Shown in pieces: positions 287 through 49,973 of a stretch of 64,000 nt of DNA. Position numbers and translations under genes: made by a program. The notes beneath the pieces are model-generated. The model searched no databases, had not been told where the DNA came from, and worked only from the letters and a program-made list of their open reading frames with translations. The stretch is from a virus (Duplodnaviria > Caudoviricetes), in the IMG/VR virus record IMGVR_UViG_3300014205_000170, positions 192,001-256,000 of that record; one strand, 5' to 3'. Numbering within the stretch: the stretch's first letter is position 1; each line of letters begins with the position of its first letter.

Positions 287-1388
287 TTATTTTTATTTGC
301 GCCCAAGATTCGTTAGATTTATCTTTCATTTCGTAATAGCCATGAAGAATGTTTTTTCCAATCAAATATTTATTACAAACACCAATAATGTCGGCCTCAT
401 TTAATTTTTCTCCAATTCTATTGTTTCTATCATCTAAATAAACACGTACTCCCCTTTGTTTTTGTTCTAAATACAAATTCAATGCAAAATTTAACTGCAC
501 TTCACTTTTAATATCTGCAACAATAATAACAGAATCATATGGTGTAATATCTGGACTCCAATTTAAACAATTTTCAATTCGACCGGCATCAGCCAAAACT
601 TGGGCCAATCGCGATATACCTATACCATAACAACCCATTACAATATCTTGTTTTTGATTATTAGTATCAACATATTTAGCTTTAAGTTGAGAAGAATATT
701 TGGTATCCAATTGAAATATATGTCCAATCTCAATTTCTCCATCACTTGTTTCAACAACAAATTCTTCAGATAATGAACCTCCAATCTCACCAGAATCAGC
801 AGATACTATTTTGTATTTCAATTGAAGTGTGTCAAAAATTGCAATATAGCAATTACGTACTTCATTATATCTTGCTTGTAAATCTTCTTTTGTAGTATGA
901 AAAGAATAAGCATCCATCATTGAAAACTCTTTACATCTGATTAAACCGGTATTACAACGAATTTCATCTCTGAATTTATTATTGATTTGATAAAATGTGA
1001 AAGGTAAATCTTTATGAGATTCTACATATGTTTTTGCAATAGTAGTTACCAACTCTTCATTGGTTCCGGTAAAAACCATTTCTTTATCAGAGCGGTCCTG
1101 TAATTTGAACATTTCAGCTCCATACGTCTCATATCTTCCTGTTTCTTTCCAAATATCGGCGCTTTGCAATTGATTCAAGCCTATTTCCATGCAATCTATT
1201 GCATTCAAATGTTGTTTCACTACTTGTTCAACATTATTTAATACCAAACGCATTAAATGCATTTGTACAAACAACCCTGATTGAACTTGTTTGATATAAC
1301 CAGACTTTTCTAAAAGTTCTGTGGTTGTTAATTTGATATTTTTATCAAATTTTTGTAAATTATACAATTTTGTTTTTGAGAGTTTCAT
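267..1388 (-). CDS. proS: prolyl-tRNA synthetase, short form without INS editing domain
   Basis: Class IIa motifs QINNKFRDEIR..GLIRCKEF, MDAYSFH, EIGHIFQL, GCYGIGISR; C-terminal anticodon domain YLDDR..IGEKLNEADIIG. Confidence 0.93.
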   Translation of the reverse strand: MKLSKTKLYNLQKFDKNIKLTTTELLEKSGYIKQVQSGLFVQMHLMRLVLNNVEQVVKQHLNAIDCMEIGLNQLQSADIWKETGRYETYGAEMFKLQDRSDKEMVFTGTNEELVTTIAKTYVESHKDLPFTFYQINNKFRDEIRCNTGLIRCKEFSMMDAYSFHTTKEDLQARYNEVRNCYIAIFDTLQLKYKIVSADSGEIGGSLSEEFVVETSDGEIEIGHIFQLDTKYSSQLKAKYVDTNNQKQDIVMGCYGIGISRLAQVLADAGRIENCLNWSPDITPYDSVIIVADIKSEVQLNFALNLYLEQKQRGVRVYLDDRNNRIGEKLNEADIIGVCNKYLIGKNILHGYYEMKDKSNESWAQIKINESIVS

Positions 1389-1657
1389 ATTATTTCATCT
1401 AAAAATATATTTTTTCTTTTCTTTTCTACAAGTACGTATCGTCCTGATGGGAACCAAAAATCTGTACTATCTCGATATAATTTATTATAAGTGTTTTGTG
1501 TTAAAAGCTCAAGCGATTGATATAAAAAACAATCATGTAAACTACCTCCTCCATAAAAAGAATCTCGTTGTAAAATATAACCTCCAAAATAGTAAGGTAA
1601 TCCTTGCTCTACATGAATGAGAACATCACCAAATTGAAATGTCGGTTTTCTACTCAT
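1385..1657 (-). CDS. small hypothetical protein with GD-type N-terminus and LxEK tag
   Basis: FQFGDVLI near the start, RYVLVEK near the end; ATGA-coupled to proS. Confidence 0.6.
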   Translation of the reverse strand: MSRKPTFQFGDVLIHVEQGLPYYFGGYILQRDSFYGGGSLHDCFLYQSLELLTQNTYNKLYRDSTDFWFPSGRYVLVEKKRKNIFLDEII

Positions 1658-1904
1658 TTGAGTTTGAAGAAATACATAAAAAATCCATTAAACTTTGAAC
1701 TTCCTCTCTTTTAAACAATTCTCGTTGAATGGTGTAAGACGATTTGCCATCTGTCAACCACCAGCGATTGTTATCTTGAGTATGTCGTATTTCAATTAAA
1801 GAATTATGCTTCTTGCCATCAATCCTATAATGAGCAGCGCCTAAGTCATTTCCCAATTCTTTAAAGCCTTTTAATTTTAAGTATTCTACTGTTATACTTT
1901 CCAT
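1650..1904 (-). CDS. hypothetical protein
   Basis: 84-aa ORF packed between ileS and the next gene. Confidence 0.55.
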   Translation of the reverse strand: MESITVEYLKLKGFKELGNDLGAAHYRIDGKKHNSLIEIRHTQDNNRWWLTDGKSSYTIQRELFKREEVQSLMDFLCISSNSNE

Positions 1905-1905
1905 A

Positions 1906-3873
1906 TCATTTTTTGTTATTTAATACATTTTTGATTTCCATTGAAAGGAATGGTAAAAACGAAAACAACATTTTTTGTAATTCACTTGCTAAAAAGTAAA
2001 ATTCATTTTCCAACGCTATTCTAAAATCATCGTTTATGTCAGATTCGTAAAATTTATTTTTTATATCCTCAGTTAAATATGAAGAATAGCTATTAGTAAA
2101 ATTCACAAAATTTCTTATCGCTTTATTAAGTTCAAAAGCATCTACATCTTTTTGTATTACTTCCTTTACATCTTTAAGTTGTTTTTGCAAATCTTCGCGC
2201 ACATTCAAAACATCATGTTGTTCTCTATGTAAATTATTTACTAGATAACGAACAAAGTTTCTTATTCTAAAATATTGTTTCCCAGCGCTATTCATAGATT
2301 CTTCAGAAAAAACCACATCGCTTTTATAATCTGAGAGCAACACCCATAATCTCATTACATCTGGATTATAAGCTTGATACATTTGTTCTAAAGGTGAATA
2401 GTTTTCCATGGACTTTGCAAATTTTTCACCAAGTTCATTTACGACAAATCCATGTGTCAATATTCTTTTTGTTGGCAATGTATCAACCATAGCAGCTATA
2501 ATGATAGATGTTTGAAACCACCCACGATGTTGGTCTATACCTTCTATGTATAGGTCTGCCGGTCCTTCATTCATTGAAAATACCGTTCCTGAGTCAAACC
2601 AAACATCCAAGATGTCATTGCTATCAGGTATGGTAACGCCCCACTTACGTTGTCTTGATAAGCACCAATCTTTTCGAGAAAACAACATGCTTTCAAGACG
2701 AGTTCTGTCTTTCTTAGAAAGCTTTATTTGTTTTACTGTTTGCTTTATTTTTGTCCAATCAAAATCCAGATATGTTTGTTCTGTAAGAACTTTATAAACT
2801 TTTTCTTTCAATCTCCAATCGATAGGATAAGAATGTGTTAATGGAACACGTTTGTAAACATATTGTTCATCTACTTTAAAAGAATCTATATGTTCTAGCA
2901 ACATTGCAACATCTTCTACAACATTCTTTGGTTCTACTCCATTTTTTACTAAGACATTATAATCCTCATCACCATGTCCTCCTGAAAGATGAACTATTCC
3001 AGTTTCAGAATCAGTTACAAACTCATCAAATAAAACCGGACATTGTTCTCCTTTATGATTTGTATAATGTGTATATTTATTATAATCAACTAAAAAATAT
3101 TTTATTTCATTTTGTATTGCAAATTTCTCACTACAAAACATTCTCAACTGTGCTTTATTTTGGTCAGTTGGATTTGAATATGTTATGCAATATTGTATTG
3201 TAGGATTTAAACAGATAGCTTGATTACCAGATACAGTCCATTCAGTTGTTGTCCACACTAAAAAAGACACATCATTATCAGCTTTCAATTTGAAATACAA
3301 AGACTCTTCAGTTATGTCTTTATATTCTATTTCAGAATTTGCTAATACTGTTTTAAGTTTTGGAGAATACCAAGTAGGTTTATTCTTTTTGAAAATAAAA
3401 CCATTTGCTTTTAAATGATTAAATATGTTTAATTCCCGTTCAACAAAATCATCAGTTAAAGTCAAATAATCATCTTGTGTTGGAAATATTCCAAACAATG
3501 ACAAAGTTTGCTTTTGCTTATCCCTATAAGAGAGTGCTATTTTCTTACAATTTTCAAACAAGTCTCCTTCATTTTGTTTTGCCTTATTTTCTATTGGTAA
3601 CCCATGGCAATCCCACCCAAATCGAACATTGACTTTATATCCATTTGTTAATAGAAATTTTATATAAAAATCTTTGAGGGTTTTATTTAAAAAATGACCT
3701 ATGTGCAAATCTCCATTCGCATATGGTGGTCCATCTTGCAAAAGAAATATTTCAGAATTATTGTTATGTAATTCATTAACACAAGAGTGTATATCCAAGC
3801 AAAATGAAGGCAACAACTCCCTGTTGAGTTTTTGCTCCATATTTGTTTTTGGTAATAAAACTGTCTTGCTCAT
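1906..3873 (-). CDS. ileS: isoleucyl-tRNA synthetase, miniaturised
   Basis: DGPPYANGDLHIGH, GWDCHGLPIE, WTTTEWT, WCLSRQRKWG, DILDVWFDSG, EGIDQHRGWFQ; KMSKS-equivalent is KFAKS. Confidence 0.93.
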   Translation of the reverse strand: MSKTVLLPKTNMEQKLNRELLPSFCLDIHSCVNELHNNNSEIFLLQDGPPYANGDLHIGHFLNKTLKDFYIKFLLTNGYKVNVRFGWDCHGLPIENKAKQNEGDLFENCKKIALSYRDKQKQTLSLFGIFPTQDDYLTLTDDFVERELNIFNHLKANGFIFKKNKPTWYSPKLKTVLANSEIEYKDITEESLYFKLKADNDVSFLVWTTTEWTVSGNQAICLNPTIQYCITYSNPTDQNKAQLRMFCSEKFAIQNEIKYFLVDYNKYTHYTNHKGEQCPVLFDEFVTDSETGIVHLSGGHGDEDYNVLVKNGVEPKNVVEDVAMLLEHIDSFKVDEQYVYKRVPLTHSYPIDWRLKEKVYKVLTEQTYLDFDWTKIKQTVKQIKLSKKDRTRLESMLFSRKDWCLSRQRKWGVTIPDSNDILDVWFDSGTVFSMNEGPADLYIEGIDQHRGWFQTSIIIAAMVDTLPTKRILTHGFVVNELGEKFAKSMENYSPLEQMYQAYNPDVMRLWVLLSDYKSDVVFSEESMNSAGKQYFRIRNFVRYLVNNLHREQHDVLNVREDLQKQLKDVKEVIQKDVDAFELNKAIRNFVNFTNSYSSYLTEDIKNKFYESDINDDFRIALENEFYFLASELQKMLFSFLPFLSMEIKNVLNNKK

Positions 3874-4145
3874 ACTTTCTTCTTTTTTAAAGCTTTTCGT
3901 ATTAATTCACTTGCTTGTGATTTAGTAGGATTTCTAGCATTTGTAGATGGTATTGGATTAAAATTTGTTATTAGTTCATCGTTTTCATAAACACTAGCTT
4001 GTAGCTCTTCTGAATTCCAAGAATCACTTTTATTATTGTTTTTCTCAATGCAAACTTCACGACTTGTTGTGTTGCCATAATGATATTCAACTTTATAATT
4101 TTTTCCTTTGAATGAAAAATATATAACTGTTTTTTCGTGTTTCAT
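3870..4145 (-). CDS. hypothetical protein
   Basis: ATGA-coupled on both sides; weak tag match REVCIEK. Confidence 0.6.
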   Translation of the reverse strand: MKHEKTVIYFSFKGKNYKVEYHYGNTTSREVCIEKNNNKSDSWNSEELQASVYENDELITNFNPIPSTNARNPTKSQASELIRKALKKKKV

Positions 4146-5683
4146 TTTTTAACGTTTGTTTTATCTAAAAGGTTCCTTATTCTCCTAAAAGACTCATTTT
4201 TACCTAATATTTCCATTGTAGTGGGCAAATCAGGCCCTGGAATACCGCCAGTAAGCGCCATTCTGAGGTCTGGGAGGACTTTACCTATCTTTATGGCTAA
4301 CGTTTCGCAAAAAGCCTCCAAATCACTCTGTATGAAATCGGCGGTCCAATCTGATTCCTTATAGGAACTAACCAAAACAGCTTTCATAATCAAAGTAAAT
4401 TCAGTTGGATTTTTTAATGAAATTTCATCTTTTAAAACAACCGGTTCAAAAAAATAGGATACGAACTTATACAATTCTTTACTAAAGACAGCACGTTCTT
4501 TTGCAAAACCAACTATCTTAGTTTTTTGATTATCATTGTAAATATAATTTTGATATTCTTCTGAAACATTTGGTTCAATGTATTGTTTAAACAACAACAT
4601 ATCATTTCTGTTTCTTAAGTAATGAGCATTAAAGTTTTTTAATTTTTCAATATCAAATTTTGCGCCGGAAGTGTTTATTCTTTCCAAACTAAACAAAGAA
4701 ATCATTTCATCTACTGACATAAACTCTTCGTTGTTTCCAGGATTCCATCCTAGTAAGGCCAAGAAATTAATCAAAGCATCCGCCTCAAATCCTTCATCTT
4801 TAAAACCTATTATATGAACAGCTTCACCTTTTTCATTGTGATAATCCCAAGTAATTGGAAAAATAGGAAAGTTATATTTCGCAGCATGGCGCTTAGAAAG
4901 CTTTTTTCCGTCAGGACCAAGAACTAATGGCAAATGACAAAATTCAGGAGCTTCCCAATCGAAAGCTTCATAGAGCATAATATGAAGTGGTGCAGATGGC
5001 AACCATTCATCAGCGCGAATTACATGAGTAATTTCCATCAAATAATCATCCACCACATTTGCTAAGTGATATGTAGGTAATCCATCAGATTTAAATAAAA
5101 CTTTATCATCAAGAGTGTTGGAATTTACAACAATATTTCCTTTTACAGAATCTGTAAATTTAATTTCTTTATCTCTCGGAGTGTTAAAGCGTATAACATA
5201 CGGTTTTCCGGAATCGATTAATTCTTTAACCACAACTGCTGAAAGTGTGTAAGAATTTTTCATCTTTTCTCTGCTTAGATAATTATAACCTAAATTATCA
5301 GCTCCAGATACTTTTAGTTCTTCTCTTAATTTTTCTAATTCTTCTGAAGAATCAAAAGCATAATATGCATGTCCTTTTGAAATTAATATGTCAATATATG
5401 TTTTGTATTCTCTTTGACTTTGTTTGTATTTTACTGTACCATCTGTATTAAAACTATTATCCGGTGTGATACCTAACCAATTCAAAGAATCAATAATGTA
5501 TTTTTCTGCCCCTTCAACAAAACGTGTTTGGTCAGTATCTTCAATACGTAAAAGAAATTCACCATCATGCTTTTTGGCAAAAAGATAATTAAATAAGGCG
5601 GTGCGAACTCCACCGATATGTAAACCACCAGTAGGACTTGGAGCAAATCTTACACGAACTTTTTTATTTTTTAAATCACTCAT
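4142..5683 (-). CDS. gltX: glutamyl-tRNA synthetase
   Basis: VRVRFAPSPTGGLHIGG, RIEDTD, PTYHLANVVDD, KLSKR, C-terminal LRMALTG..GP; ~510 aa as in Bacteroidota GluRS. Confidence 0.96.
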   Translation of the reverse strand: MSDLKNKKVRVRFAPSPTGGLHIGGVRTALFNYLFAKKHDGEFLLRIEDTDQTRFVEGAEKYIIDSLNWLGITPDNSFNTDGTVKYKQSQREYKTYIDILISKGHAYYAFDSSEELEKLREELKVSGADNLGYNYLSREKMKNSYTLSAVVVKELIDSGKPYVIRFNTPRDKEIKFTDSVKGNIVVNSNTLDDKVLFKSDGLPTYHLANVVDDYLMEITHVIRADEWLPSAPLHIMLYEAFDWEAPEFCHLPLVLGPDGKKLSKRHAAKYNFPIFPITWDYHNEKGEAVHIIGFKDEGFEADALINFLALLGWNPGNNEEFMSVDEMISLFSLERINTSGAKFDIEKLKNFNAHYLRNRNDMLLFKQYIEPNVSEEYQNYIYNDNQKTKIVGFAKERAVFSKELYKFVSYFFEPVVLKDEISLKNPTEFTLIMKAVLVSSYKESDWTADFIQSDLEAFCETLAIKIGKVLPDLRMALTGGIPGPDLPTTMEILGKNESFRRIRNLLDKTNVKK

Positions 5684-8546: not shown

Positions 8547-8900
8547 TTAATTATTTTTATGTCTTTTTGAGCGTTCCCGCAAATCTTCTATGGTCCAAAA
8601 TCTTTCTGTATCATAATCAGCATTGTTTTTGTTGCATTTTTGACACAAAATAATTATTCTAATTTCATTATTGAAACATGGGGTTTTTCTTAAAGGATTC
8701 ATTTTACTATATTTATGTTCTAATGTACATAAATTATCTGGGTTGTATTTTAAAGTTTTTTTACCATTATTAGGGTGTACGTTGAATCCAATTTCTTCCG
8801 GCAATATCATTTTCGTTTTACATTTGGGACAAAATGGATTTTGATTATAAAGCCTTGTGCGTTTCTCTTTTAATCTTTGTTGTTTAGATTTTTTAGACAT
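8547..8900 (-). CDS. HNH endonuclease-like protein
   Basis: CPKC ... TLEH ... LCQKCN zinc/HNH pattern. Confidence 0.65.
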   Translation of the reverse strand: MSKKSKQQRLKEKRTRLYNQNPFCPKCKTKMILPEEIGFNVHPNNGKKTLKYNPDNLCTLEHKYSKMNPLRKTPCFNNEIRIIILCQKCNKNNADYDTERFWTIEDLRERSKRHKNN

Positions 8901-9115
8901 TTCTCTATTAATATTTTTTTTGTATAAATTTTATGTTTCCAATTATATAAAACCTTTTTACCATCTACTAGCCGCCATTTTCCGGCCTCCTCATCATATT
9001 TATTCCACACAACAAAAAATTCTCCATTATACAAATTAAACACAACCTCTCTTACAATTTGTAATTCTTCAAGGTGATTGTGAAAAAAAATTATTTCTCT
9101 TGGAGTAGGGTTCAA
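8870..9115 (-). CDS. small hypothetical protein with LxEK tag
   Basis: KKILIEK; shares NHLxE and W.YDE with the neighbouring ORF. Confidence 0.55.
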   Translation of the reverse strand: MNPTPREIIFFHNHLEELQIVREVVFNLYNGEFFVVWNKYDEEAGKWRLVDGKKVLYNWKHKIYTKKILIEKCLKNLNNKD

Positions 9116-10813: not shown

Positions 10814-11120
10814 CTACTTTTAATTCCCATTTTTCATTTTTTCTCGCAATGGCTTTAAGTACATCCTCTGCTGTAAAACCAAAACCATCCAAAATACAAA
10901 TAACATTTTGAATGGAGTCAGCTCCCTCATCTAAAATTTCTTGATTAATACTTTCTGGAGTATCTTCAGGCTTCAAAACTTTCCTTCCATTTGTTTTATT
11001 AATAGCTTTAGCTAACTCTCCGCCCTCTTCAAAAAATTTCCCCAATCTCTCCGCAGCAGTTGCTTGGTCTTTTTGATTTATACGACTAATGTCGTTATAT
11101 ATTATTTCGAAATTTTTCAT
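10800..11120 (-). CDS. MazG-like nucleotide pyrophosphohydrolase
   Basis: KFFEEGGELAKAI ... EILDEGAD ... RKNEKW. Confidence 0.75.
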   Translation of the reverse strand: MKNFEIIYNDISRINQKDQATAAERLGKFFEEGGELAKAINKTNGRKVLKPEDTPESINQEILDEGADSIQNVICILDGFGFTAEDVLKAIARKNEKWELKVDGKL

Positions 11121-11554
11121 TGTATATAAATTAATTTTGTATGTATATAATTCTGATTATTAAATAAAATGCAATATTTTGGAGGTAATAGTATATCAGA
11201 GTATACAGTAATTCCTTCTATATATCCCTCTTTTCTAGCTCCATTATGATGTTCAAAATCCTTATCAAATGAAAAAATTTTATGTGTGTAAAATTGTCTT
11301 AACAAAACCTCAACTTCCATAGAAATATATAAAGAATTAAATAAAAATTCTTTTTCCAGCAAAACATTACGGGTATTTAAATGATATTCAAAACAATCAT
11401 CATATTTTAAATTTGATAAATTTTTCAATATTCTTATTAGTAAAGTTTTATCATGTTCTGTTTGAGAAGAAGAACTTTTCCATTCCCAAATTCCCTGTGG
11501 GGTGAATTCGGTATATTTAATTTTATCTTGAATATATTTTAATGTGTGTAACAT
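11117..11554 (-). CDS. hypothetical protein with internal LxEK tag
   Basis: TRNVLLEK. Confidence 0.55.
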   Translation of the reverse strand: MLHTLKYIQDKIKYTEFTPQGIWEWKSSSSQTEHDKTLLIRILKNLSNLKYDDCFEYHLNTRNVLLEKEFLFNSLYISMEVEVLLRQFYTHKIFSFDKDFEHHNGARKEGYIEGITVYSDILLPPKYCILFNNQNYIHTKLIYIQ

Positions 11555-12291: not shown

Positions 12292-13042
12292 AATATTTCT
12301 TTATTAGTTTATAAAATTGTTCTTCAAAAACAACATTCAAAGGTATTCTAAATGCAGCAAAAAACAAAGCCAATTCCTCACTAGAATAATAATTTAAATT
12401 ATTATCGTGACAATTATAAGGACACAGCAATTCTAAATGTTTATTATTATCAGCGAATTCATATGCGCTTTTAATTTCTTCTTTAATTTGTTCTGGAGTT
12501 CTACTAGGATGGGTATCTTTGGTTAAATCTTTAGTGACAATACCAAAACATTGACCATTTAAACCTCTAGGTTTTCCATTTTTCGCTCCAAACTTCTCTT
12601 TACACAGCAACGCAAATCCTTTACCATATCTTCCTTGTGTATTGGTTCCAACTATCGCTATTTGATTTTCTTTTAAAGATAATATTTTACCTTTGTATGT
12701 TCGGTGAATATCCAATTTAGATTCAATGATTTTTTTAATGATAGTGCCATGGCAAGGCTGTGGCATACAATAACACACTAAATTCATATTTGTCCCGGAA
12801 CGAACTTTTTTCCAAATTGAATTTAATTCTTTGCAAACAATAGTATCTTTATTTTTAATTTTTTCATTAAGATACTCGCTAAACATTTTTAAAGACTGTT
12901 CTCTTGAATCACAATGATATTCTGCTTTGGTTTGAACTGTTGCCGGAATACTAGTATAAGGATTTCCTAAAGGAGAGCCTCTACCAATAAACACATCATT
13001 TTCAGTAGGAGTATGTGTTTTTTTATTTACTACGGTTATCAT
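12281..13042 (-). CDS. DUF4326-like domain fused to a macrodomain-like phage domain
   Basis: DVFIGRGSPLGNPY and LVCYCMPQPCHG; C-half IAIVGTNTQGRYGKGFA...GQCFGIVTK. Confidence 0.6.
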   Translation of the reverse strand: MITVVNKKTHTPTENDVFIGRGSPLGNPYTSIPATVQTKAEYHCDSREQSLKMFSEYLNEKIKNKDTIVCKELNSIWKKVRSGTNMNLVCYCMPQPCHGTIIKKIIESKLDIHRTYKGKILSLKENQIAIVGTNTQGRYGKGFALLCKEKFGAKNGKPRGLNGQCFGIVTKDLTKDTHPSRTPEQIKEEIKSAYEFADNNKHLELLCPYNCHDNNLNYYSSEELALFFAAFRIPLNVVFEEQFYKLIKKYYEF

Positions 13043-13430
13043 TGAATTGTTTTAAAGATTGCAATAATAATTCTTGTGTAATCATTTCTACAAAATAAGA
13101 ATAACATTCTGTTGAATTTCTGCGACCATTATAAAAATGGTAATAACCAGTACAATATAAAAAAGTATGTTGATATAATTCATCCAGTTCAGTTACATTG
13201 CATTCATCAAACATAGCCTTTTGATTAAATTGTTTTAAGAGTTTCATCATTATAAATTTGACCATCTCTGAAAGACAACTAATTGCATCTTGGTTAATTT
13301 TTTTTTCTTGTATAGACTGCATAATTGAAATATAAAGAAGTTCTTTAAAATGAACATGAAAAACAGAACGAGAAGTTATTTTTTCAAGCAGAACACTTTT
13401 GTGGTGTAAATATTTTCCTTTCTCTTCCAA
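13023..13430 (-). CDS. hypothetical protein, possibly a degenerate gp55-like sigma region-2 fragment, with N-terminal LxEK tag
   Basis: HKSVLLEK; KELLYISIMQS...ELYQ..FLYC...CYSYFVEMI recalls the xxAYFTxI motif of phage late sigma factors. Confidence 0.35.
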   Translation of the reverse strand: MEEKGKYLHHKSVLLEKITSRSVFHVHFKELLYISIMQSIQEKKINQDAISCLSEMVKFIMMKLLKQFNQKAMFDECNVTELDELYQHTFLYCTGYYHFYNGRRNSTECYSYFVEMITQELLLQSLKQFNDNRSK

Positions 13431-13438: not shown

Positions 13439-13816
13439 TTAAACAAATTCATGGTAATTTTTATATCGGGTTTGTGCATGATACACAACAACACTTTTTA
13501 TTTCGTTTATTCTTCTATTTATTCCAGTTTTATGAATATCACTTTCAAATGCAATTTTTGTTAGCTCAGAAATAGTTTTAAATTCAGTATAACCATAATG
13601 AACTTGAGTGCAATTATATAAAATACAATCTTTATAAGGAGAATTATGTCTATATTTAATTTCTACAACAAATCCAAACACACCATCATCAACAAAATTT
13701 TGTTCCTTCGATATGTTTATCCTTTTGTTTAAAACAATAAGTTTCATCCAATTAAAAAGATAACCTTTTTTTTCTATAATAACATCTCTTTCTTGTATTT
13801 TTGAAGGGGAAAACAC
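13439..13816 (-). CDS. hypothetical protein with N-terminal LxEK-like tag
   Basis: ERDVIIEK; directly downstream of an ECF-type promoter. Confidence 0.6.
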   Translation of the reverse strand: MFSPSKIQERDVIIEKKGYLFNWMKLIVLNKRINISKEQNFVDDGVFGFVVEIKYRHNSPYKDCILYNCTQVHYGYTEFKTISELTKIAFESDIHKTGINRRINEIKSVVVYHAQTRYKNYHEFV

Positions 13817-14137: not shown

Positions 14138-16272
<2,135 letters not shown>

Positions 16273-16283
<11 letters not shown>

Positions 16284-16479
16284 TTTCTTTTTTTAAGTGC
16301 TCTAATCCCGCAAATGCTTCTCTTTTTCTTTCTAACCATTCATTAAATTCTGAGGTATCAAGAAACAATGGTTTATTCACTCCGGTAACACAAATGAATT
16401 TTTTACCAAAATTCTTTTTTGATGACCCGCGTCCTTTTGATTTTATAAATTGCTGTAACCATTTATTAAAAGCGTCCAT
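16273..16479 (-). CDS. hypothetical protein
   Basis: 68-aa ORF between the tRNA and trpS. Confidence 0.45.
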
Positions 16480-16493
16480 TTCATTTATTTTTG

Positions 16494-16577
16494 TGTAGAT
16501 GGGAGGATTCGAACCACCAACCCCAAACCGTTTTGAAGCGGATGAACTACCATTTCTCCATTATAGGGCACATCTAC
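16494..16577 (-). tRNA. atypical tRNA or tRNA-like gene, 8-nt anticodon loop CUUCAAAA (UCA or CAA)
   Basis: Acceptor GTAGATG/CATCTAC, T-arm GGTGG-TTCGAAT-CCTCC, anticodon core CCG/CGG; D-arm irregular; no encoded CCA. Confidence 0.7.
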
Positions 16578-16578
16578 A

Positions 16579-17355
16579 TTATGTTTCACTTCTTGTATAA
16601 CCACCTTTTTCAAAATCATCAATCCAAATCAATTTATAAAAACTTCTATCTTGTCCATAAGGCTGAATACGTATATGGCCTCTCACTTTAAAACCATCTG
16701 TTACAATGATTTTATTCCACAGTGTATTAACTAAAGTTACATCAAACAATGTATCATTTAAAAAATTATTTTCCTTCCCTTTAAATCCAATATCTTTATT
16801 AATTTTTTGAGATGGTTTAATAATAAACAATTCCGGCTCTGTTAATTTTACAAACAGAAGTAATTTTACAAATCTTTGTTTAGCTTCTTCATTTTGATTA
16901 GCATACTGTGTTATTTCCTTTTCTTTCAATAAAACAGCAAAACTTTCATAATTAACCATTGGACCTTTATCACTTTGTGATATAAACCAACGAACAACAT
17001 TAATACGTTCTCCTTTTATAACTTGAAATCTGTAAAATTCAGTTTTACTAATTACATAAGAAGAAATCTCATTTTCCAATTCCTTAAACCAATCTAAGTT
17101 TATTTTATTGATTTTAATTAAATCAGAATGTTTTTGTACGTTTTGACTTAAATAAAACAAATTTCCTTTTTTGGTAGGCGCACAAAGCGAGTGAGCTAAA
17201 GATACACCTTGAACAACATAAAAATTTTGAGCGTCAACACTAGGAATCGCTTGCTTATTTTTTTCCAAAATAGCTTTTTGTTGAGACAAATAGAATTGTT
17301 TCAACATTGGACCATGTTCAAATTGTATAGCCAAATATTCTTTGGATAGTTTCAT
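16579..17355 (-). CDS. conserved phage hypothetical protein
   Basis: C-terminal VRGHIRIQPYG...KLIWI..F.KG motif of a kind common in phage proteins. Confidence 0.6.
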   Translation of the reverse strand: MKLSKEYLAIQFEHGPMLKQFYLSQQKAILEKNKQAIPSVDAQNFYVVQGVSLAHSLCAPTKKGNLFYLSQNVQKHSDLIKINKINLDWFKELENEISSYVISKTEFYRFQVIKGERINVVRWFISQSDKGPMVNYESFAVLLKEKEITQYANQNEEAKQRFVKLLLFVKLTEPELFIIKPSQKINKDIGFKGKENNFLNDTLFDVTLVNTLWNKIIVTDGFKVRGHIRIQPYGQDRSFYKLIWIDDFEKGGYTRSET

Positions 17356-17372
17356 ATAACCAATTGTTAAAA

Positions 17373-33316: not shown

Positions 33317-33393
33317 CGCACACCCTCCTATGTCAGGGGTAAATCAAATTACCCCCTCCTAGATAAGGGGGTAAAGCTTTTCTTTTATACTAA
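33317..33393 (+). repeat. left arm of ~75-bp inverted repeat with internal hairpins
   Basis: Reverse complement of 34048..34121 with 3 single-base indels and 2 substitutions. Confidence 0.92.
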
Positions 33394-33487
33394 GCTACAA
33401 AAGGATTTTCAAGAAGTCAAACTGCCCTAATTAAGGAGTAATTCGTTTTCTGCAAAGAGTTCTAAAAATTTGGGTTCTAATGTTTTT

Positions 33488-33778
33488 TTAAAATGGGTGT
33501 TCTTCTTTTTCTGTAAGAACCTGTGCTTGTGTTTCAAACCAATTACCCATTTCTACAATTTGATTTGTCTCTCCATCTTCAAATATAGCTTCTAATATAG
33601 AAACAAATTGTAAAGTTGTATCAAAATCTTTAATAATCCATTTTGGATTACGCTCTAAGTTACCATATTTTTTTTTGAAGGCTTTATAGTTCAACATATT
33701 TATGTCCCAAGCTAGAGACATATCAGTTAATTCTCCTGAAAATATTACACCTTTTTTATCTTGAATTTGATATCTCAT
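33488..33778 (-). CDS. hypothetical protein with LxEK tag, inside the inverted repeat
   Basis: QAQVLTEK near the C-terminus. Confidence 0.55.
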   Translation of the reverse strand: MRYQIQDKKGVIFSGELTDMSLAWDINMLNYKAFKKKYGNLERNPKWIIKDFDTTLQFVSILEAIFEDGETNQIVEMGNWFETQAQVLTEKEEHPF

Positions 33779-33915: not shown

Positions 33916-34047
33916 TAATAGTTATTTTAATAATAAAATTAAAATTTTAGAATATAAAGTAAAGTACAATCTTAATTTTAACAGAAAAATACATTGTTCA
34001 TACCTCTTAATTAAGGTAGTTTGCTTTCTTGGAAACTACTGTATATT

Positions 34048-34121
34048 TTAGTATAAAAGAAAAGCTTTACCCCTTATCTAGGAGGAGTAATTTGATTTAC
34101 CCATGACATAGGAGGTGTGCG
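34048..34121 (-). repeat. right arm of ~75-bp inverted repeat
   Basis: Partner of 33317..33393. Confidence 0.92.
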
Positions 34122-35014: not shown

Positions 35015-35293
35015 GTGAGTGCAATTTTCATAGATAACAATCAACAGTTGGGTAATACAATTTTAGTTACCGGTTTTATACGACATGAATATATTTCTTT
35101 AAAAGGATATATAAGCAGTATAGTAAACATGTCTAGTCTTCGTACGTTAAACTCCCATTTAGAAATCAATTTTATTGCAAAAAATAAACGTTATAAATGT
35201 GCGCGAGGGTTTAATTCTCTTCTTTTAATAACTAGAACAGTATTAATTGAAAAACAACATAAACACTATACAACAAAGAAAGTGGAACGGTGA
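35015..35293 (+). CDS. array 1 member 1 (GDT..KG family, LxEK tag)
   Basis: LGNTI, LKGYI, TRTVLIEK. Confidence 0.65.
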   Translation: MSAIFIDNNQQLGNTILVTGFIRHEYISLKGYISSIVNMSSLRTLNSHLEINFIAKNKRYKCARGFNSLLLITRTVLIEKQHKHYTTKKVER

Positions 35294-35547
35294 GCCATAA
35301 TACATCGCAAATAGAAAATAATCACGAGTTAGGTAGTACCATATTAGTAGATGGTATTCTTAATCATCAGACTATTTTATTAAAAGGATGTATAATACAT
35401 GTTATGACTAGAGTTGCTGCTGTTTCTTATAATGAAATTTTTTTTGTGACAAAAAATAAAAATTATAAAATTTCACGCGAATTAGATTATTCCTTTAGAA
35501 TAACCAGAACAGTATTGTTAGAAAAAAATATAATAAGAAATGTATGA
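35290..35547 (+). CDS. array 1 member 2
   Basis: LGSTI, LKGCI, TRTVLLEK; close paralog of member 1. Confidence 0.65.
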   Translation: MSHNTSQIENNHELGSTILVDGILNHQTILLKGCIIHVMTRVAAVSYNEIFFVTKNKNYKISRELDYSFRITRTVLLEKNIIRNV

Positions 35548-35785
35548 TATAGGTACTACATTTATAACCCAAGAGAAGAACGGTCCTTTAATAAAAGGAC
35601 ATATAGATAAAATTCAACTTATGCCACACAATTTACATGGTAAATGTGGTTATACTGCAATTTTTTGTATGCTAGGTAAGGATAAATTTACTACATTAAT
35701 ACATAAACATGGGAAAAAACGACCATTTCAATATGCTAAAATAGTATTACTAGAAAAATTATCTTTGAAATACAAAGTAACATAA
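35540..35785 (+). CDS. array 1 member 3
   Basis: IGTTF, IKGHI, AKIVLLEK. Confidence 0.65.
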   Translation: MYDIGTTFITQEKNGPLIKGHIDKIQLMPHNLHGKCGYTAIFCMLGKDKFTTLIHKHGKKRPFQYAKIVLLEKLSLKYKVT

Positions 35786-35798
35786 ACAAACTTTTAAG

Positions 35799-36032
35799 AT
35801 GTTCCAGTTCATTATAAACATATTTGAACGTTTAGATAAAGAAAGAGATGAAAAACTTTATCAACAACGCCTTAAAGAATACTACCACGATGTAGCAATG
35901 TATCACAATAAATGTACAAGAAAAACTTTGATAGAGAAGAACAATAATGAAAGCAATAATAGAATTTTACCAATTATCCATCCTAGTGCATTTAAAGTAG
36001 CTGTTGGCACTCATAATAGAAGAAATAAATAA
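35799..36032 (+). CDS. array 1 member 4 (tag only, no GDT head)
   Basis: TRKTLIEK. Confidence 0.5.
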   Translation: MFQFIINIFERLDKERDEKLYQQRLKEYYHDVAMYHNKCTRKTLIEKNNNESNNRILPIIHPSAFKVAVGTHNRRNK

Positions 36033-36036
36033 CAAA

Positions 36037-36327
36037 ATGACTTTAGGTGATACAGTAGAAATATATTTTATAATACATAGCACAAACCATTTTATAAATT
36101 CTATTAAAGGATATGTTGTTGAAAAAAAAGGTACTGTTGCAAATCAAAATATTAATATAATATGTAACAATCAATTGTTTGGTATTTTATCATATGATAC
36201 TCAATTTTATGTTTATCAATGGCATAAAAACAAAGCTTTTCCAATACTTATTTATTACTATAATACTCCTAAGTTAAATTATAAATATAGTAGTGTGGTT
36301 TTAATAGAAAAAAAATATCGTGTATAA
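36037..36327 (+). CDS. array 1 member 5
   Basis: MTLGDTV, IKGYV, SSVVLIEK; start reassigned to ATG 36037. Confidence 0.65.
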   Translation: MTLGDTVEIYFIIHSTNHFINSIKGYVVEKKGTVANQNINIICNNQLFGILSYDTQFYVYQWHKNKAFPILIYYYNTPKLNYKYSSVVLIEKKYRV

Positions 36328-36652
36328 TTTTCAAATCGGAGATACAGTAGAGATTTTTTTAACTAAAAACAACATGCCTGAATTTTTAAAACATCAGCAG
36401 GGATGTGTTGCGTATATTTTTCAAGATAACGAAGAATCGTTAGATTTACGTTTAGTGAAAAATAATAAAATTTCTTATAAAGTTATAAGAGTTTATATGG
36501 ATACAACTTCCAAGAAAAGAGCAACATGTTTTGAAACATTTTCTGATAATTATGATGTAATTATTTGGAATTGTGAAAATGGTGATTTTTTCACTGTTCA
36601 TGTACAAGGAAAAAGAATACCGTTAATCGAAAAAAGCTTATTATGGTATTAG
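36320..36652 (+). CDS. array 1 member 6
   Basis: FQIGDTV, QGCV, KRIPLIEK. Confidence 0.65.
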   Translation: MYNFQIGDTVEIFLTKNNMPEFLKHQQGCVAYIFQDNEESLDLRLVKNNKISYKVIRVYMDTTSKKRATCFETFSDNYDVIIWNCENGDFFTVHVQGKRIPLIEKSLLWY

Positions 36653-36939
36653 GAAATACAGTTAAAATATCTTTTTTTAACGCAGAGAAAAATTATAAAA
36701 AATCTTTTAAAGGATACATTTTTAAATTACCTAGACATAATAAAGAAAAAGTATGTGATGTTTATTTAGCTTTAAATAACATTAAAAGAATAAGACTATT
36801 TAAATGGCCTTTTGAAAAAGAAGTTTATGTTTTTACGGCTAACGAGGCATATGCCAAAAGAATAGATAAGTTTGATGCTAGTTCTTTTAAAATAAAAGAA
36901 ACAAAAATAGTATTATTAGAAAAATTACGTTATGTATAA
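36643..36939 (+). CDS. array 1 member 7
   Basis: LGNTV, FKGYI, TKIVLLEK. Confidence 0.65.
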   Translation: MVLGNTVKISFFNAEKNYKKSFKGYIFKLPRHNKEKVCDVYLALNNIKRIRLFKWPFEKEVYVFTANEAYAKRIDKFDASSFKIKETKIVLLEKLRYV

Positions 36940-37258
36940 TTTTATAGAAGGAGACACAATACAAATTAGATTAATTAACAGAAGAAAGAAACGTCAGTCT
37001 ATTTCATTTGGTTCAAAAGGATATGTTGTTATAAATAACAACAATGAAGAATGTGACTATACAATAGCAAAAAATTCTAGTAGTCTACATAGATATGTAT
37101 ATTTTAAAGAAAAAAAAATATTTGTTGTATATAAAAGTTGTTGGGATAGAAAACTAAAAAAAGCGACGGTTACGCAAGAAAACTCAGATATATTTAAAAA
37201 TTTCTTTATAAAAATCTCATTAGCAAAAACTGTTTTAACAGAAAAAACATGGCTTTAA
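36932..37258 (+). CDS. array 1 member 8
   Basis: EGDTI, SKGYV, AKTVLTEK. Confidence 0.65.
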   Translation: MYNFIEGDTIQIRLINRRKKRQSISFGSKGYVVINNNNEECDYTIAKNSSSLHRYVYFKEKKIFVVYKSCWDRKLKKATVTQENSDIFKNFFIKISLAKTVLTEKTWL

Positions 37259-37596
37259 ATTGTCAATTAGGCGATACAATTGAAATTTATTTTTTCGATG
37301 AAACTTCAACATTATTGTTAGGTTGTGACAAAACTTACATTGTAAAATGTTCGAACAAATATAGTCCAATAAAAATTTATAATTTTATAAATAAAAAAAA
37401 TTCTTTTATAGTAAGAAACGGATTTACTATTGAGCCCCTTTATCTTTCTGGATATAGCATCAACAAAGCTGATTCGACCCAGTTATTAGGGCTTTTAAAA
37501 TGTACTAATCATACAAAATGTAAATTACATTTCAAAAACATTAGAATGGTTCTTACAGAAAAAGAAGAATCTTTTTTTAAGCCTTTTTATGATTGA
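37249..37596 (+). CDS. array 1 member 9
   Basis: QLGDTI, KTYIV, IRMVLTEK. Confidence 0.65.
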   Translation: MALNCQLGDTIEIYFFDETSTLLLGCDKTYIVKCSNKYSPIKIYNFINKKNSFIVRNGFTIEPLYLSGYSINKADSTQLLGLLKCTNHTKCKLHFKNIRMVLTEKEESFFKPFYD

Positions 37597-46349: not shown

Positions 46350-48299
46350 ATGGCAATTGGAGAACTTATTTATGGAGTAGACACCTTGAATCAAGGTAGA
46401 ATAAAGATTAATAATTTTTATTCCGGTCAAACTATTATTTGGTCTTCAAGTACAGGAACTTATTCTGTTATAAGAAATAATGTGGCTGAAAATTTAAATA
46501 ACGCCGCATTAGGATTTAATTCATTCGCAGCTGGAGCTTCTAATACAGCATCAAATAATTTTAGTATAGCATTTTGGGGAACAGGAAATACATCATCGGG
46601 TTATTTTTCTAGTGTTTTAGTTGGTAAAAACAACACAGCGTCAGGAAATTTCACAACTATTTTAGCCGGTACAAACAATACAACAAATTCAACTGCAGTA
46701 TATTCTGTAATCATAGGAGGTTCTGGAAATACTATTTCCAATGGTGGAAGTTATGCTACAATATTAAACGGAAGACAAAATAGTGCATCCGGAAGTGATT
46801 CTTTAGTATCTGGTATAAAAAATACTGCTACAACAACAAATTCAGCCATAATTTCAGGACAACAAAACGTTGCCTCCGGTATTCGTTCATTTATGGGGGC
46901 TGGATACTTAAATTCAGCTGCAACATCTACAAATATTGCTATTTTAGGTGGAACAAGAAATGTAATTTCTGGCGCATCAGCAGCATATTCAGTAGTTATT
47001 GGTGGAGTACAAAATAATGCTACCGGACCATCTTCAGTAGTGTCAGGTGGTTATAGAAATAGCGCAAGAGATAATAGAAGTTTTGTAGGTGCTGGTAGAC
47101 AAAATTCAACCGCTAGTGGTGCTATAAGTTCTGCAATTTTAGGAGGTAGTGGAAATAGTATTTCTACTACTTATGCAACAATTGGAGGTGGACAAACAAA
47201 CAGAATACAATCTAATGGTAATTATGGTTTTATTGGAGGAGGAAAAAATAATTTAATTAGCTCAACTTATGGTGTCGGCTCATCAGGTATTGTTGGTGGT
47301 AGTGGAAACACAATTAACTCTTATGGTACATTTAGTTTTATAGGTGGTGGACAAGGAAATAGAAGTGCAAATAATCGCGGTGCGATTGTTGGAGGTTCTA
47401 CCAATTATATTGGCGGTTCCAATGCTGGTATTCTTTCTGGATACAGAAATAGAGCAGTTGGTAGTAGTAGTGGTGTAATAGCCGGAAAAGGATGTTATGC
47501 AGCAAATGCATATGCTGCTGCAATGGGTGGAGGTGCACAAACAAGAGCATCTTTCTCTTTAGTTATTGGAAATCAAAATACCACAACTCCAAACGTAGCA
47601 AATAATACAATTTCATTATCAGGTAGTGTTGGATACGTTGTTGCAGAAGGTGGTTTTCAAACGGCAACTGCCGATTATGCCGAGTATTTTGAGTGGGAAG
47701 ATGGAAATCCTTCTAAAGAAGATAGACGCGGATATTTCGTTTCTTTGGTTGATGATAAAATTAAAATTGCAAATGATGATGTACTAGGAATTATTTCATC
47801 AGCTCCTGGATTTATTGGAGACACAGCTGAACATCGCTGGTCAGGTATGTACATTAAAGATGATTGGAATAATACAGTGTTTGAAACATATACAAAATAT
47901 GATTGGTTAAGTGAAGATAAAGAAATAAACTACATAGTATTCAAAGATAAAGAAGGAAATTTATATAAAGAATATCCACACGCTTCCTTTCCTAAAGGTT
48001 TGATTTTTGAAGGAGTGGTTCCTGAAAATGCTAAAGTAGAACAAATTATGGTTCCAAAAATGAATCCTGATTATAATCCATCATCAGAAGCATATATATC
48101 TCGTGCAAACAGACCAGAATGGTCTCCAGTAGGTTTATTAGGAAAGTTACACGTAAGAACCGCAGAACCTATTACAAGTAAATCTATTGATGTGAATAAA
48201 AAAGGTTTAGCTATAAACGGAACTAAATACAGAGTTTTAAATACTATTAGACCTCATACCGAAAGTCAATATGGTATAGTAAAAGTTTTCTTTAAGTAA
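46350..48299 (+). CDS. tail fibre/spike with Gly-rich beta-helical repeats and C-terminal autocleaving chaperone (peptidase G2-like)
   Basis: Many (S/A)xIxGGxxN repeats; ADYAEYFEWEDGNP...RRGYFV...RANRPEWSPVGLLGK. Confidence 0.82.
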   Translation: MAIGELIYGVDTLNQGRIKINNFYSGQTIIWSSSTGTYSVIRNNVAENLNNAALGFNSFAAGASNTASNNFSIAFWGTGNTSSGYFSSVLVGKNNTASGNFTTILAGTNNTTNSTAVYSVIIGGSGNTISNGGSYATILNGRQNSASGSDSLVSGIKNTATTTNSAIISGQQNVASGIRSFMGAGYLNSAATSTNIAILGGTRNVISGASAAYSVVIGGVQNNATGPSSVVSGGYRNSARDNRSFVGAGRQNSTASGAISSAILGGSGNSISTTYATIGGGQTNRIQSNGNYGFIGGGKNNLISSTYGVGSSGIVGGSGNTINSYGTFSFIGGGQGNRSANNRGAIVGGSTNYIGGSNAGILSGYRNRAVGSSSGVIAGKGCYAANAYAAAMGGGAQTRASFSLVIGNQNTTTPNVANNTISLSGSVGYVVAEGGFQTATADYAEYFEWEDGNPSKEDRRGYFVSLVDDKIKIANDDVLGIISSAPGFIGDTAEHRWSGMYIKDDWNNTVFETYTKYDWLSEDKEINYIVFKDKEGNLYKEYPHASFPKGLIFEGVVPENAKVEQIMVPKMNPDYNPSSEAYISRANRPEWSPVGLLGKLHVRTAEPITSKSIDVNKKGLAINGTKYRVLNTIRPHTESQYGIVKVFFK

Positions 48300-48501
48300 T
48301 TTGTGCATCATAATATTTTTCAAACAACACTATTTTTGCAGGAATAATTATTTTTCCTTCGTGAAAAAATAAAAACATACTTTCAACTTTTTTTTCTTTT
48401 AATACATAAAAATGTATATAAGCAAAACTAATACGTACACAAAAACCTTTTTTTGACTGCCCTATATTCGTGTTAATTATATATGTAGAACCTATATTCA
48501 T
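48292..48501 (-). CDS. array 2 member (GDT..KG family, LxEK tag)
   Basis: IGSTY, KKGFC, AKIVLFEK. Confidence 0.62.
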   Translation of the reverse strand: MNIGSTYIINTNIGQSKKGFCVRISFAYIHFYVLKEKKVESMFLFFHEGKIIIPAKIVLFEKYYDAQIT

Positions 48502-48695
48502 AAATAACTTTTCTCAAACAACACAATTGTACAATGAACATATTGTAATTCAATTGCATAAAATATTTCTTTTTGATTTGGTCTCATTACAAAAAGTTCA
48601 AATGGCTTCCCTTCATTAACAACGAATCCTTTTCTATTTTCTTCTTTAAAGCGACATATCGTATCTCCGATTTTTATAGAATAATTATAACTCAT
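48498..48695 (-). CDS. array 2 member
   Basis: IGDTIC, RKGFVV, TIVLFEK. Confidence 0.65.
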   Translation of the reverse strand: MSYNYSIKIGDTICRFKEENRKGFVVNEGKPFELFVMRPNQKEIFYAIELQYVHCTIVLFEKSYL

Positions 48696-48704
48696 TGAAT
48701 TTTT

Positions 48705-48953
48705 TTAAAACGGAACAACATTCTCTTCTGAATATACTACTTTTTCAAATAAAACTATTTTACTTGGTATAAATAAATAAGGACTAGAATTAATGGTGTT
48801 ATTACCGCTAGGTGAAATGACTGACAAATTATAATTACTTGTACAATCTACTACAATTCCTTTTATTGCTTTTTTATATATTGATACATATATAGACGTT
48901 GGAGAATTACACACAGTGTCTCCATTTTTAAATTCAAGTTTCATCGAGGCCAT
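48705..48953 (-). CDS. array 2 member
   Basis: NGDTVC, IKGIVV, SKIVLFEK. Confidence 0.65.
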   Translation of the reverse strand: MASMKLEFKNGDTVCNSPTSIYVSIYKKAIKGIVVDCTSNYNLSVISPSGNNTINSSPYLFIPSKIVLFEKVVYSEENVVPF

Positions 48954-49141
48954 CTAAAAGTTTTTTCTATTAAAACCATTTTACTTAATTTGTAATGCGC
49001 TTTATAAGTATTAAGACACAATTTAATATTTGATTGAATGTATTCCACAAATGTGTCATTGCATTTTAAAACAAAGCCTTTACATTCTCCAATTTTGGTA
49101 CAATCATAAACATTACAAATTGTATCACCTATCTCAAACAT
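48941..49141 (-). CDS. array 2 member
   Basis: IGDTIC, CKGFVL, SKMVLIEK. Confidence 0.65.
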   Translation of the reverse strand: MFEIGDTICNVYDCTKIGECKGFVLKCNDTFVEYIQSNIKLCLNTYKAHYKLSKMVLIEKTFRWPR

Positions 49142-49353
49142 ATTTTTTCTATTAATACAATTCTAGCATTTATGAAATTTACATCTGGATTTCTATTATT
49201 ATGAAACTTCAATTTATGTCCTATTAAAATTAATTCTCGTGTTTTAATTCCAGTAATTAAATCTTTCATATTAAGAATAGCAAGTACATAACCTTTAATA
49301 CGTTTCCGTGTAAATCTATCAAATCCTATTACTGTATCACCTAATTTAAACAT
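49129..49353 (-). CDS. array 2 member
   Basis: LGDTVI, IKGYVL, ARIVLIEK. Confidence 0.65.
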   Translation of the reverse strand: MFKLGDTVIGFDRFTRKRIKGYVLAILNMKDLITGIKTRELILIGHKLKFHNNRNPDVNFINARIVLIEKICLR

Positions 49354-49355
49354 AT

Positions 49356-49583
49356 TTAAAAAACTACTATTCGGTCCTCTAATCTAGGTTTATGTTTTTC
49401 TAACAAAACAACAGAACTAAGAAAATAAATTCTATTATATGAATTAATCACTGTTTTTATGTTAGTTTTAATTAAAGAAATATTATCAAAGTCACAATAA
49501 ACAACAAAACCTTTATCAAATCCTGGTTTATTATGAAGGTAATCAAATTCACATACTGTATCTCCTATTTCAAATTCAATCAT
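49356..49583 (-). CDS. array 2 member
   Basis: IGDTVC, DKGFVV, SSVVLLEK. Confidence 0.65.
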   Translation of the reverse strand: MIEFEIGDTVCEFDYLHNKPGFDKGFVVYCDFDNISLIKTNIKTVINSYNRIYFLSSVVLLEKHKPRLEDRIVVF

Positions 49584-49640
49584 TAAATTCGTTTTTTAAT
49601 ATATCTTCGTATCCCAATATTAAATGAATTAGACATTTTT

Positions 49641-49973
49641 TTACCAAGGATATACTAATTTTTCAAAAATCACAAATGAATTTTCAATAGATTCATATTG
49701 TCTATCCTGAAAATAATATTTATCTATATCTACTTGTAATTTTTCTTTTGAAATAGATATTTTTTCATTTAAAACAATTCTTCTATTCTTTATTTTTCTA
49801 ATTTGTATCCAAGAATAAATTTGTCCATTATTAGACAAAATATCCATATTATAATTAAGTCCAGTTGGTCGCAAGGAACTTTGCGTTTGAAAAATGTTTA
49901 AAAGAATACCCTTTATTGTTTCGCCTTGTGCATTTGGCAAACCATGATAAGATATTGTATCTCCAACATTCAT
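49641..49973 (-). CDS. array 2 first member
   Basis: VGDTIS, IKGIL, RRIVLNEK and a second copy SFVIFEK. Confidence 0.65.
   Translation of the reverse strand: MNVGDTISYHGLPNAQGETIKGILLNIFQTQSSLRPTGLNYNMDILSNNGQIYSWIQIRKIKNRRIVLNEKISISKEKLQVDIDKYYFQDRQYESIENSFVIFEKLVYPW

Follow-up and report, generated by a model that had tools for sequence, protein, structure and literature searches.

A single eight-residue peptide, with the consensus [T/S]-R-x-V-L-[ILFT]-E-K, is present on about a fifth of the proteins of an uncultured, T4-related phage with a genome of 519 kb, where it behaves like a portable address label, mostly a terminal extension on lineage-specific accessory proteins. The stretch in which this tag was noticed, hereafter the window, comprises 64,000 nucleotides (bases 192001-256000) of the 518,809-bp virus record IMGVR_UViG_3300014205_000170, which has direct terminal repeats and a G+C content of about 30%. 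A first-pass annotation, made from the letters of the window alone, had picked out the peptide on about 35 small proteins and had proposed that it loads them into the capsid or docks them on a common hub protein.

The tag is enriched over chance and conserved as a peptide

In its strict form, [RK]-x-[VI]-[LF]-[LIFT]-E-K, the motif occurs 24 times in the open reading frames (ORFs) of the window, every time in a small one. A position weight matrix was made from the strict-motif matches, and at a cut-off score of at least 11 it identifies the tag in 33 of the 86 window ORFs, compared with 0.36 expected from 100 within-protein shuffles (maximum 2). Two further ORFs are borderline (GRYVLVEK at 1385-1657 and TRTTLVEK at 20413-20910), which bears out the earlier estimate of about 35. 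All of these carriers lie between positions 1385 and 49973, and all are small: the tag is found in 33 of the 50 ORFs of at most 170 amino acids (aa) and in none of the 36 larger ones, which encode enzymes and structural proteins. The first-pass annotation had cautioned that L-x-E-K has background matches in Lys- and Glu-rich proteins and was right to do so; its example, KQLLLEK in an SbcC-like protein, scores 8.4 and falls under the cut-off.

Genome-wide counts were made on a greedy set of 853 ORFs, called with the standard bacterial code and covering 94% of the genome. The strict motif is found in frame 111 times in this set versus 0.95 times in within-protein shuffles (maximum 4 in 200), and the corresponding controls gave no matches to the reversed motif, none in the other sense frames, three in antisense and three in intergenic sequence. 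At the matrix cut-off there are 181 carriers versus 4.6 by chance, and the enrichment over shuffled sequences on which the earlier proposal had been staked is thus evident both in the window and in the whole genome.

Conservation ends abruptly at the edges of the motif, as the 20 residues flanking it on each side show none. Within the tag, Arg may be replaced by Lys, Val by Ile, Leu or Met, and Leu by Ile, Met or Phe; in protease-site numbering, in which the Glu would occupy P1 and the final Lys P1', position P3 is Leu, Ile, Phe or Val across 222 sites of a loose form of the motif. Sites at which the Glu or the Lys is replaced occur at background level (13 versus 10.9 expected and 9 versus 7.5 expected, respectively). 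Neither Asp for Glu, which was found once, nor Arg for Lys is tolerated above background. At every position of the tag, codon choice matches the genome background for that residue, and selection therefore acts on the peptide, as had been claimed from the window.

The placement of the tag is flexible. Among the 181 carriers it is C-terminal in 82, N-terminal in 58 and internal in 41, and for the window the corresponding counts are 22 or 23 (with 1-17 residues past the Lys), 7, and 4 or 5. N-terminal tags begin at residues 1-35, behind unconserved leaders. Only two of the carriers with C-terminal tags end at the Lys itself, the others continuing into unconserved tails of 1-20 residues.

Carriers are diverse, lineage-specific proteins

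BLAST comparison of the carriers of the whole genome yields more than 20 families and 96 singletons. The tandem arrays at 35015-37596 and 48292-49973 had been taken for separate families; we found instead that they form one, with an N-terminal G-D-T and K-G signature (GDT..KG) and 15 members among the window carriers, and the broader view of a portable label on dissimilar, fast-evolving small proteins held. An AlphaFold model of this family (predicted local distance difference test score, pLDDT, 80) is a small beta-barrel of five strands, in which the tag follows directly on the last strand and has no regular structure; a Foldseek search with the model returned only generic SH3/Tudor/L19-like matches, with E above 0.03. 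The other window carriers comprise a pair (24174/24607), a trio with N-terminal tags (30551/30952/31338) and singletons. No homologues of the trio were found outside the phage's own genome, and its AlphaFold model was too poor for use (pLDDT 41). Pfam searches with 20 window carriers gave sub-threshold matches only and no family, and a tblastn search with one carrier gave no match.

More informative matches came from 20 larger carriers elsewhere in the genome, which include a Tad3 Thoeris inhibitor (E 2.7e-27) with the tag at its extreme C-terminus and an Acb3 CBASS inhibitor (E 6.2e-37) with the tag just past the domain. Some small tagged ORFs match fragments of the capsid protein, and one tagged protein (genome 291960-292424) is gp21-like and has no catalytic His; an untagged gp21-like protein (genome 270303-270773) also lacks this residue. 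Carriers are soluble, and their charge and isoelectric point are the same as those of other small proteins.

Only 10 of the 181 carriers have homologues in two tag-less relatives. The homologue rate is 4% for carriers versus 21% for untagged proteins of 101-170 aa, and 12% versus 41% for those of 171-300 aa. Alignment of the 10 carriers with their homologues leaves the tag outside the shared core in 7, where it extends the protein at its N- or C-terminus, and it is therefore an add-on module. Judged by these comparisons, the carriers are lineage-specific accessory genes, which probably serve host takeover and anti-defense. The idea that they represent a single protein domain family was rejected on the grounds that conservation does not reach beyond the 8 residues, that the position of the tag varies, and that it lies outside the homologous cores.

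The tag has phylogenetic limits and is conserved in environmental homologues

A DNA-level pattern for the tag matches the phage's own genome 82 times, compared with 0 matches for a control pattern. The contigs (37 and 41 kb) of relatives whose capsid proteins are 89-90% identical have 2 and 4 matches and none to the control, and eight relatives with capsid proteins at most 82% identical (about 1.7 Mb) have at most 2 matches each, which is the control level. A de novo search in a reduced amino acid alphabet recovers the tag from the phage's own genome (218 versus 35), and a de novo search for any comparable tag found none in the tag-less relatives G001 and G003 (232 and 372 kb); the best candidate for an alternative tag in G001 proved to be noise.

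With a profile of the beta-barrel family, we found 21 homologues in other metagenomes, all in separate clusters at 50% identity. Near the C-terminus, [S/T]-[RK]-x-V-L-x-E-K is retained in twenty of them, with E-R in its place in the remaining one, so that the tag is nearly invariant while the domain diverges. On a soil contig, all seven complete ORFs of an array end in T-R-x-V-L-x-E-K. A syntenic contig (L096:4539-5532; Logan SRR21686410) has an array that adjoins a Peptidase_G2 gene, as in the window, and five of its six members have the variant [RK]-I-V-L-L-E-F-x-K, the sixth keeping SRIVLFEK. In this variant the Lys has moved by two residues and still lies on the same face of an extended strand. 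Tagged relatives are represented in the samples SRR21686410, ERZ923668 and SRR28520272.

Head genes and promoter context

The phage encodes a gp23-type major capsid protein (genome 355857-357416; PF07068, E 3.5e-76) and a Peptidase_S77 (gp21-type) prohead protease (genome 358997-359665; PF03420, E 2.9e-32), and the gene between these two encodes an acidic, scaffold-like protein of 491 aa (genome 357450-358925). By capsid protein, the closest cultured relatives are Flavobacterium phages, at 35% identity. A DNA search of window segments against a phage collection gave no match.

Three promoter-like elements bear on when carriers may be expressed. The first, GTGTAAC-N17-CGTATAGTAC, has 46 intergenic copies, found only at genome 1-46000 and 516000-518800 and often exactly 13 nt ahead of an ATG; it seems to define a promoter class of its own, serving about 90 genes, and there is no carrier among the approximately 97 ORFs of the genome's first 40 kb. 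The second, a CTATTTAT box, is a candidate late promoter that resembles the T4 late box in reverse and is found 13-40 nt ahead of the gene for the scaffold and of other large, likely structural genes. The third is a TAnnTTTG box, which we take to be the housekeeping promoter element of Bacteroidota. By a crude and approximate assignment of promoters from these motifs, carriers account for 6 of 64 genes in late-type units with the CTATTTAT box versus 74 of 278 genes in units with the TAnnTTTG box.

Genomic surroundings of the carriers

The window carriers are listed in Table 1 with those neighboring genes that belong to a translation and repair cluster at 267-5683 and 14138-20130. Other larger genes of the window encode a UvrD-type helicase, NIF3, SbcC/SbcD-like proteins, a primase-like protein and a GIY-YIG protein, as well as a tail-spike-like protein with a Peptidase_G2 domain. 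An imperfect inverted repeat of about 115 nt (33324-33440 and 34001-34115; 73 nt of the arms are 79% and 32 nt are 94% complementary) encloses a segment of 560-730 bp that encodes a carrier (33488-33778) and, on the opposite strand, a hydrophobic protein of 96 aa, and this segment may be invertible or mobile. Elsewhere in the genome, a ClpP homologue is encoded at 172443-173189 on the minus strand (E 1.8e-62) and is also present in relative G001. The protein database holds two contigs of this genome, of 518,809 and 518,834 bases, apparently two near-identical assemblies.

Table 1. Tag carriers and selected neighboring genes, in window coordinates. Residue numbers give the site of the tag in the protein.
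Feature	Position	Strand	Length (aa)	Tag	Tag site	Score	Remarks
Carrier	1385-1657	-	90	GRYVLVEK	C-terminal	10.9	borderline; tag DNA at 1421-1444
Carrier	3870-4145	-	91	SREVCIEK	N-terminal, residue 28	14.4	
Carrier	8870-9115	-	81	TKKILIEK	C-terminal	17.4	
Carrier	11117-11554	-	145	TRNVLLEK	internal, residue 61	22.5	no Pfam family
Carrier	13023-13430	-	135	HKSVLLEK	N-terminal, residue 10	15.1	
Carrier	13439-13816	-	125	ERDVIIEK	N-terminal, residue 9	11.8	
Carrier	17407-17736	-	109	SRMVLFEK	internal, residue 59	22.2	
Carrier	18007-18225	+	72	TRIVLLEK	C-terminal	23.2	
Carrier	20413-20910	-	165	TRTTLVEK	residue 130	10.8	borderline
Carrier	23795-24169	-	124	KKKVFIEK	C-terminal	15.4	
Carrier	24174-24614	-	146	TRNILIEK	C-terminal	20.8	paralogue of 24607-25056
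Carrier	24607-25056	-	149	KRGILLEK	C-terminal	16.7	
Carrier	25037-25408	-	123	IRKPLIEK	C-terminal	12.3	proline variant
Carrier	30249-30578	-	109	YRNVLFEK	N-terminal, residue 25	21.2	
Carrier	30551-30952	-	133	QRKVFLEK	N-terminal, residue 8	17.8	family with 31338 and 30952
Carrier	30952-31365	-	137	KRRILIEK	N-terminal, residue 26	18.1	
Carrier	31338-31739	-	133	QRRVLTEK	N-terminal, residue 11	20.6	
Carrier	31736-32185	-	149	KRNVITEK	one residue past Lys	14.3	
Carrier	33488-33778	-	96	QAQVLTEK	C-terminal	11.9	weak tag; between inverted repeats
Carrier	35015-35293	+	92	TRTVLIEK	C-terminal		GDT..KG family, small beta-barrel
Carrier	35290-35547	+	85	TRTVLLEK			GDT..KG family
Carrier	35540-35785	+	81	AKIVLLEK			GDT..KG family
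Carrier	35799-36032	+	77	TRKTLIEK	internal		outlier in array
Carrier	36004-36327	+	107	SSVVLIEK			GDT..KG family
Carrier	36320-36652	+	110	KRIPLIEK			GDT..KG family; proline variant
Carrier	36643-36939	+	98	TKIVLLEK			GDT..KG family
Carrier	36932-37258	+	108	AKTVLTEK			GDT..KG family
Carrier	37249-37596	+	115	IRMVLTEK			GDT..KG family
Carrier	48292-48501	-	69	AKIVLFEK			GDT..KG family
Carrier	48498-48695	-	65	CTIVLFEK			GDT..KG family
Carrier	48705-48953	-	82	SKIVLFEK			GDT..KG family
Carrier	48941-49141	-	66	SKMVLIEK			GDT..KG family
Carrier	49129-49353	-	74	ARIVLIEK			GDT..KG family
Carrier	49356-49583	-	75	SSVVLLEK			GDT..KG family
Carrier	49641-49973	-	110	RRIVLNEK; SFVIFEK	residue 64; near C-terminus		GDT..KG family; two tag-like sites
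Aminoacyl-tRNA synthetase-like genes, class II and class I (four)	267-1388, 1906-3873, 4142-5683, 15543-16283						
RtcB ligase	14138-15532						
NAPRTase	18913-20130						

Discussion

In regard to what reads the tag, the closest parallel lies in the internal head proteins of T4. The capsid targeting sequence of T4 is a short propeptide, later removed, by which diverse internal proteins enter the scaffolding core (PMC9026906, PMC3012670), and the internal proteins are a diverse, defense-countering set with only this sequence in common (PMC3012670). The T4 protease gp21 cleaves after Glu in I/L-x-E (PMC12991175), and Asp at the Glu position of the targeting sequence blocks processing (PMC9026906). 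Because T4 Alt and gp21 also bear C-terminal propeptides (PMC9026906), C-terminal tags have precedent. The fit of the tag to the I/L-x-E rule had been pointed out in the first-pass annotation, and it gains from our finding that the phage encodes a gp21-family protease, a scaffold and a gp23-type capsid protein. Furthermore, conservation on both faces of the strand, together with strict residues at P1 and P1', is what we infer to be the pattern of a highly specific protease site.

We therefore tentatively favor, as a possibility that stops short of being likely, that the tag is an elaborated relative of the T4-type capsid-targeting and processing signal. In this scheme, the carrier would be docked by its tag on the core of a prohead under assembly until cleavage behind the invariant Glu (V-L-x-E|K) by the gp21-family prohead protease had set it free inside the head, to be ejected with the DNA. 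A more doubtful proposition is the full extent of such a system, in which about 180 small proteins, Tad3 and Acb3 included, would be routed into the capsid by one address code and injected with the DNA, while a dedicated reader keeps the code fixed across related environmental phages.

Several observations weigh against capsid targeting and processing. The presumed maturation site of the capsid protein, HMLNE|V, which was placed by analogy with T4 and is the same in tagged and tag-less relatives, has Leu at P3 and Glu at P1 in common with the tag and lacks the Arg (P6), Val (P4) and Lys (P1'); the tag therefore appears to encode more than gp21 specificity. These extra fixed residues suggest a reader of greater specificity than generic gp21 recognition, possibly a docking step before cleavage or another partner. 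Tag-less relatives have an orthologous protease, scaffold and capsid protein, and thus these proteins alone do not explain the tag. Compared with 23 tag-less relatives, the protease has only three clade-specific substitutions (V52K, K108E and K125R), and the size and charge of the scaffold are equal in tagged and tag-less lineages. No more than 58 of the tags lie toward the N-terminus, and a cut at the 41 internal ones would split the protein. Carriers are scarce in late-type units and no more basic than other small proteins, and some 180 packaged species would be far above the number in any virion described in the literature consulted, in which SPN3US has roughly 50 head proteins (PMC7411985). 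The VLLEFxK variant, in five of the six array members of one relative, shows that the Lys is not tied to P1'. A complex prediction for the active protease (residues 1-185, 26-row alignment) with the carrier 35015-35293 (16-row alignment) gave a score of 0.06 against a mark of 0.32 and counts neither way.

Alternatively, the tag may be a docking handle for a hub that is not part of the prohead, an abundant phage or host protein to which it would add a strand and which would bring the carriers together or control them, leaving them uncut. We regard this as somewhat unlikely, although it accommodates the conservation of both strand faces, the Lys that is invariant and never Arg, the VLLEFxK variant that leaves Glu and Lys on the same strand faces, and the occurrence of the tag at either terminus or internally. 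Strong conservation of the tag across diverged phages is likewise as would be expected with a slowly evolving reader. Candidates for the hub are an adaptor, a catalytically dead gp21-like protein or a conserved host protein. Of the two gp21-like proteins without the catalytic His, however, the untagged one has an orthologue in tag-less G001 (E 2e-28), and thus its presence does not track the tag, and the tagged one looks like one more carrier. No partner was found among other candidates: the genome encodes neither an Hsp70 nor a trypsin-like protease, and a search for a 3C-like protease, run without a working positive control, gave no match.

The tag may also act in time rather than in space, as a switch or degron by which the late head protease or the phage ClpP cuts or degrades tagged early proteins in the cytoplasm, activating or removing them without packaging. 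A cytoplasmic cleavage switch is plausible because, late in a T4 infection, gp21 cleaves a soluble host protein of the cytoplasm in a loop of the I/L-x-E type (PMC12991175) and because the phage encodes ClpP; moreover, carriers are mostly in non-late units, none is in the terminal promoter class, and most tags are close to a terminus. Yet ClpP is also present in tag-less G001, the loss of 3-17 C-terminal residues would rarely alter activity, and the Arg, Val and Lys would be left unexplained, which makes such a switch unlikely. We rejected a C-terminal degron of the ssrA/ClpX type in particular, as the signal does not sit at the extreme C-terminus, unlike in ssrA-type degrons, and many tags are N-terminal or internal.

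It is quite improbable that the tag has no reader at all and serves instead as a strand for structure or self-association, or is all that can still be recognized of one huge family of paralogues. The 15 window carriers that form one family, with the tag directly past the last beta-barrel strand, and the tandem arrays, which point to duplication, would fit this idea. They are outweighed, in our view, by tags at the N-terminus, at the C-terminus or inside proteins without detectable similarity, by tags attached beyond the core that Tad3, Acb3, capsid-protein fragments and others have in common with untagged homologues, and by the lack of conservation in the tag flanks. Finally, a DNA or RNA signal or a composition effect that merely reads as a peptide, conceivable in an AT-rich genome with proteins rich in Lys, Glu, Ile and Leu, in whose shuffles the loose motif arises 31 times, is refuted by the 111 in-frame matches set against the frame, reversed and shuffle controls and by the background codon usage.

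Implications

We found no published description of this tag or of a comparable proteome-wide label in a phage. New here are its phylogenetic limits, its environmental conservation, the variant with the shifted Lys, the invariance of Glu and Lys, the add-on architecture, the depletion of carriers in a promoter class and the test of a dead protease as candidate reader. Should the tag be an address label, most of the small proteins that otherwise defy annotation in this phage are marked as one functional class by a single peptide, and because two carriers are already recognizable immune inhibitors, it offers a way to find new anti-defense and takeover proteins. If it is the capsid-loading signal that we favor, T4's handful of internal proteins would become a system of about 180 cargos, and phage engineering would gain a short, position-tolerant packaging tag. 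A reader of any other kind would be an undescribed hub of giant-phage biology.

Comparison with known systems

The cargo-loading peptides of encapsulins are terminal peptides of about 10 residues on unrelated cargo, and they presumably dock on the inside of an HK97-fold shell; compared with the tag they have another consensus, undergo no cleavage and serve cellular compartments. The cleavage sites of tobacco etch virus NIa and picornavirus 3C proteases are seven to eight residues long, strict at P1 and P1' and conserved at P3, P4 and P6. These sites separate the domains of a polyprotein, whereas the tag is one site per small, independent protein.

Compared with sites for gp21-type proteases (I/L-x-E in T4; S/A/G-x-E in phiKZ and SPN3US), the tag stands out for the number of its fixed residues. 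It has the hydrophobic P3 and the strict Glu at P1, but known sites have "very few determinants" (PMC9026906) and the tag fixes five to six positions. The capsid targeting sequence of T4 internal proteins IPI, IPII and IPIII (PMC3012670, PMC9026906) occupies roughly the first 10 residues of the protein, immediately behind the initiator Met, whereas the tag is mostly C-terminal or internal, at a variable distance from the end. T4 has a handful of carriers, in contrast to the approximately 180 in this phage, in whose tags Arg, Val and Lys are additionally fixed. Nevertheless, the likeness extends over several levels: in both phages a short peptide is all that diverse, fast-evolving and partly anti-defense proteins have in common, in both it contains I/L-x-E with a strict Glu, and both encode head genes of the gp21, gp22 and gp23 types.

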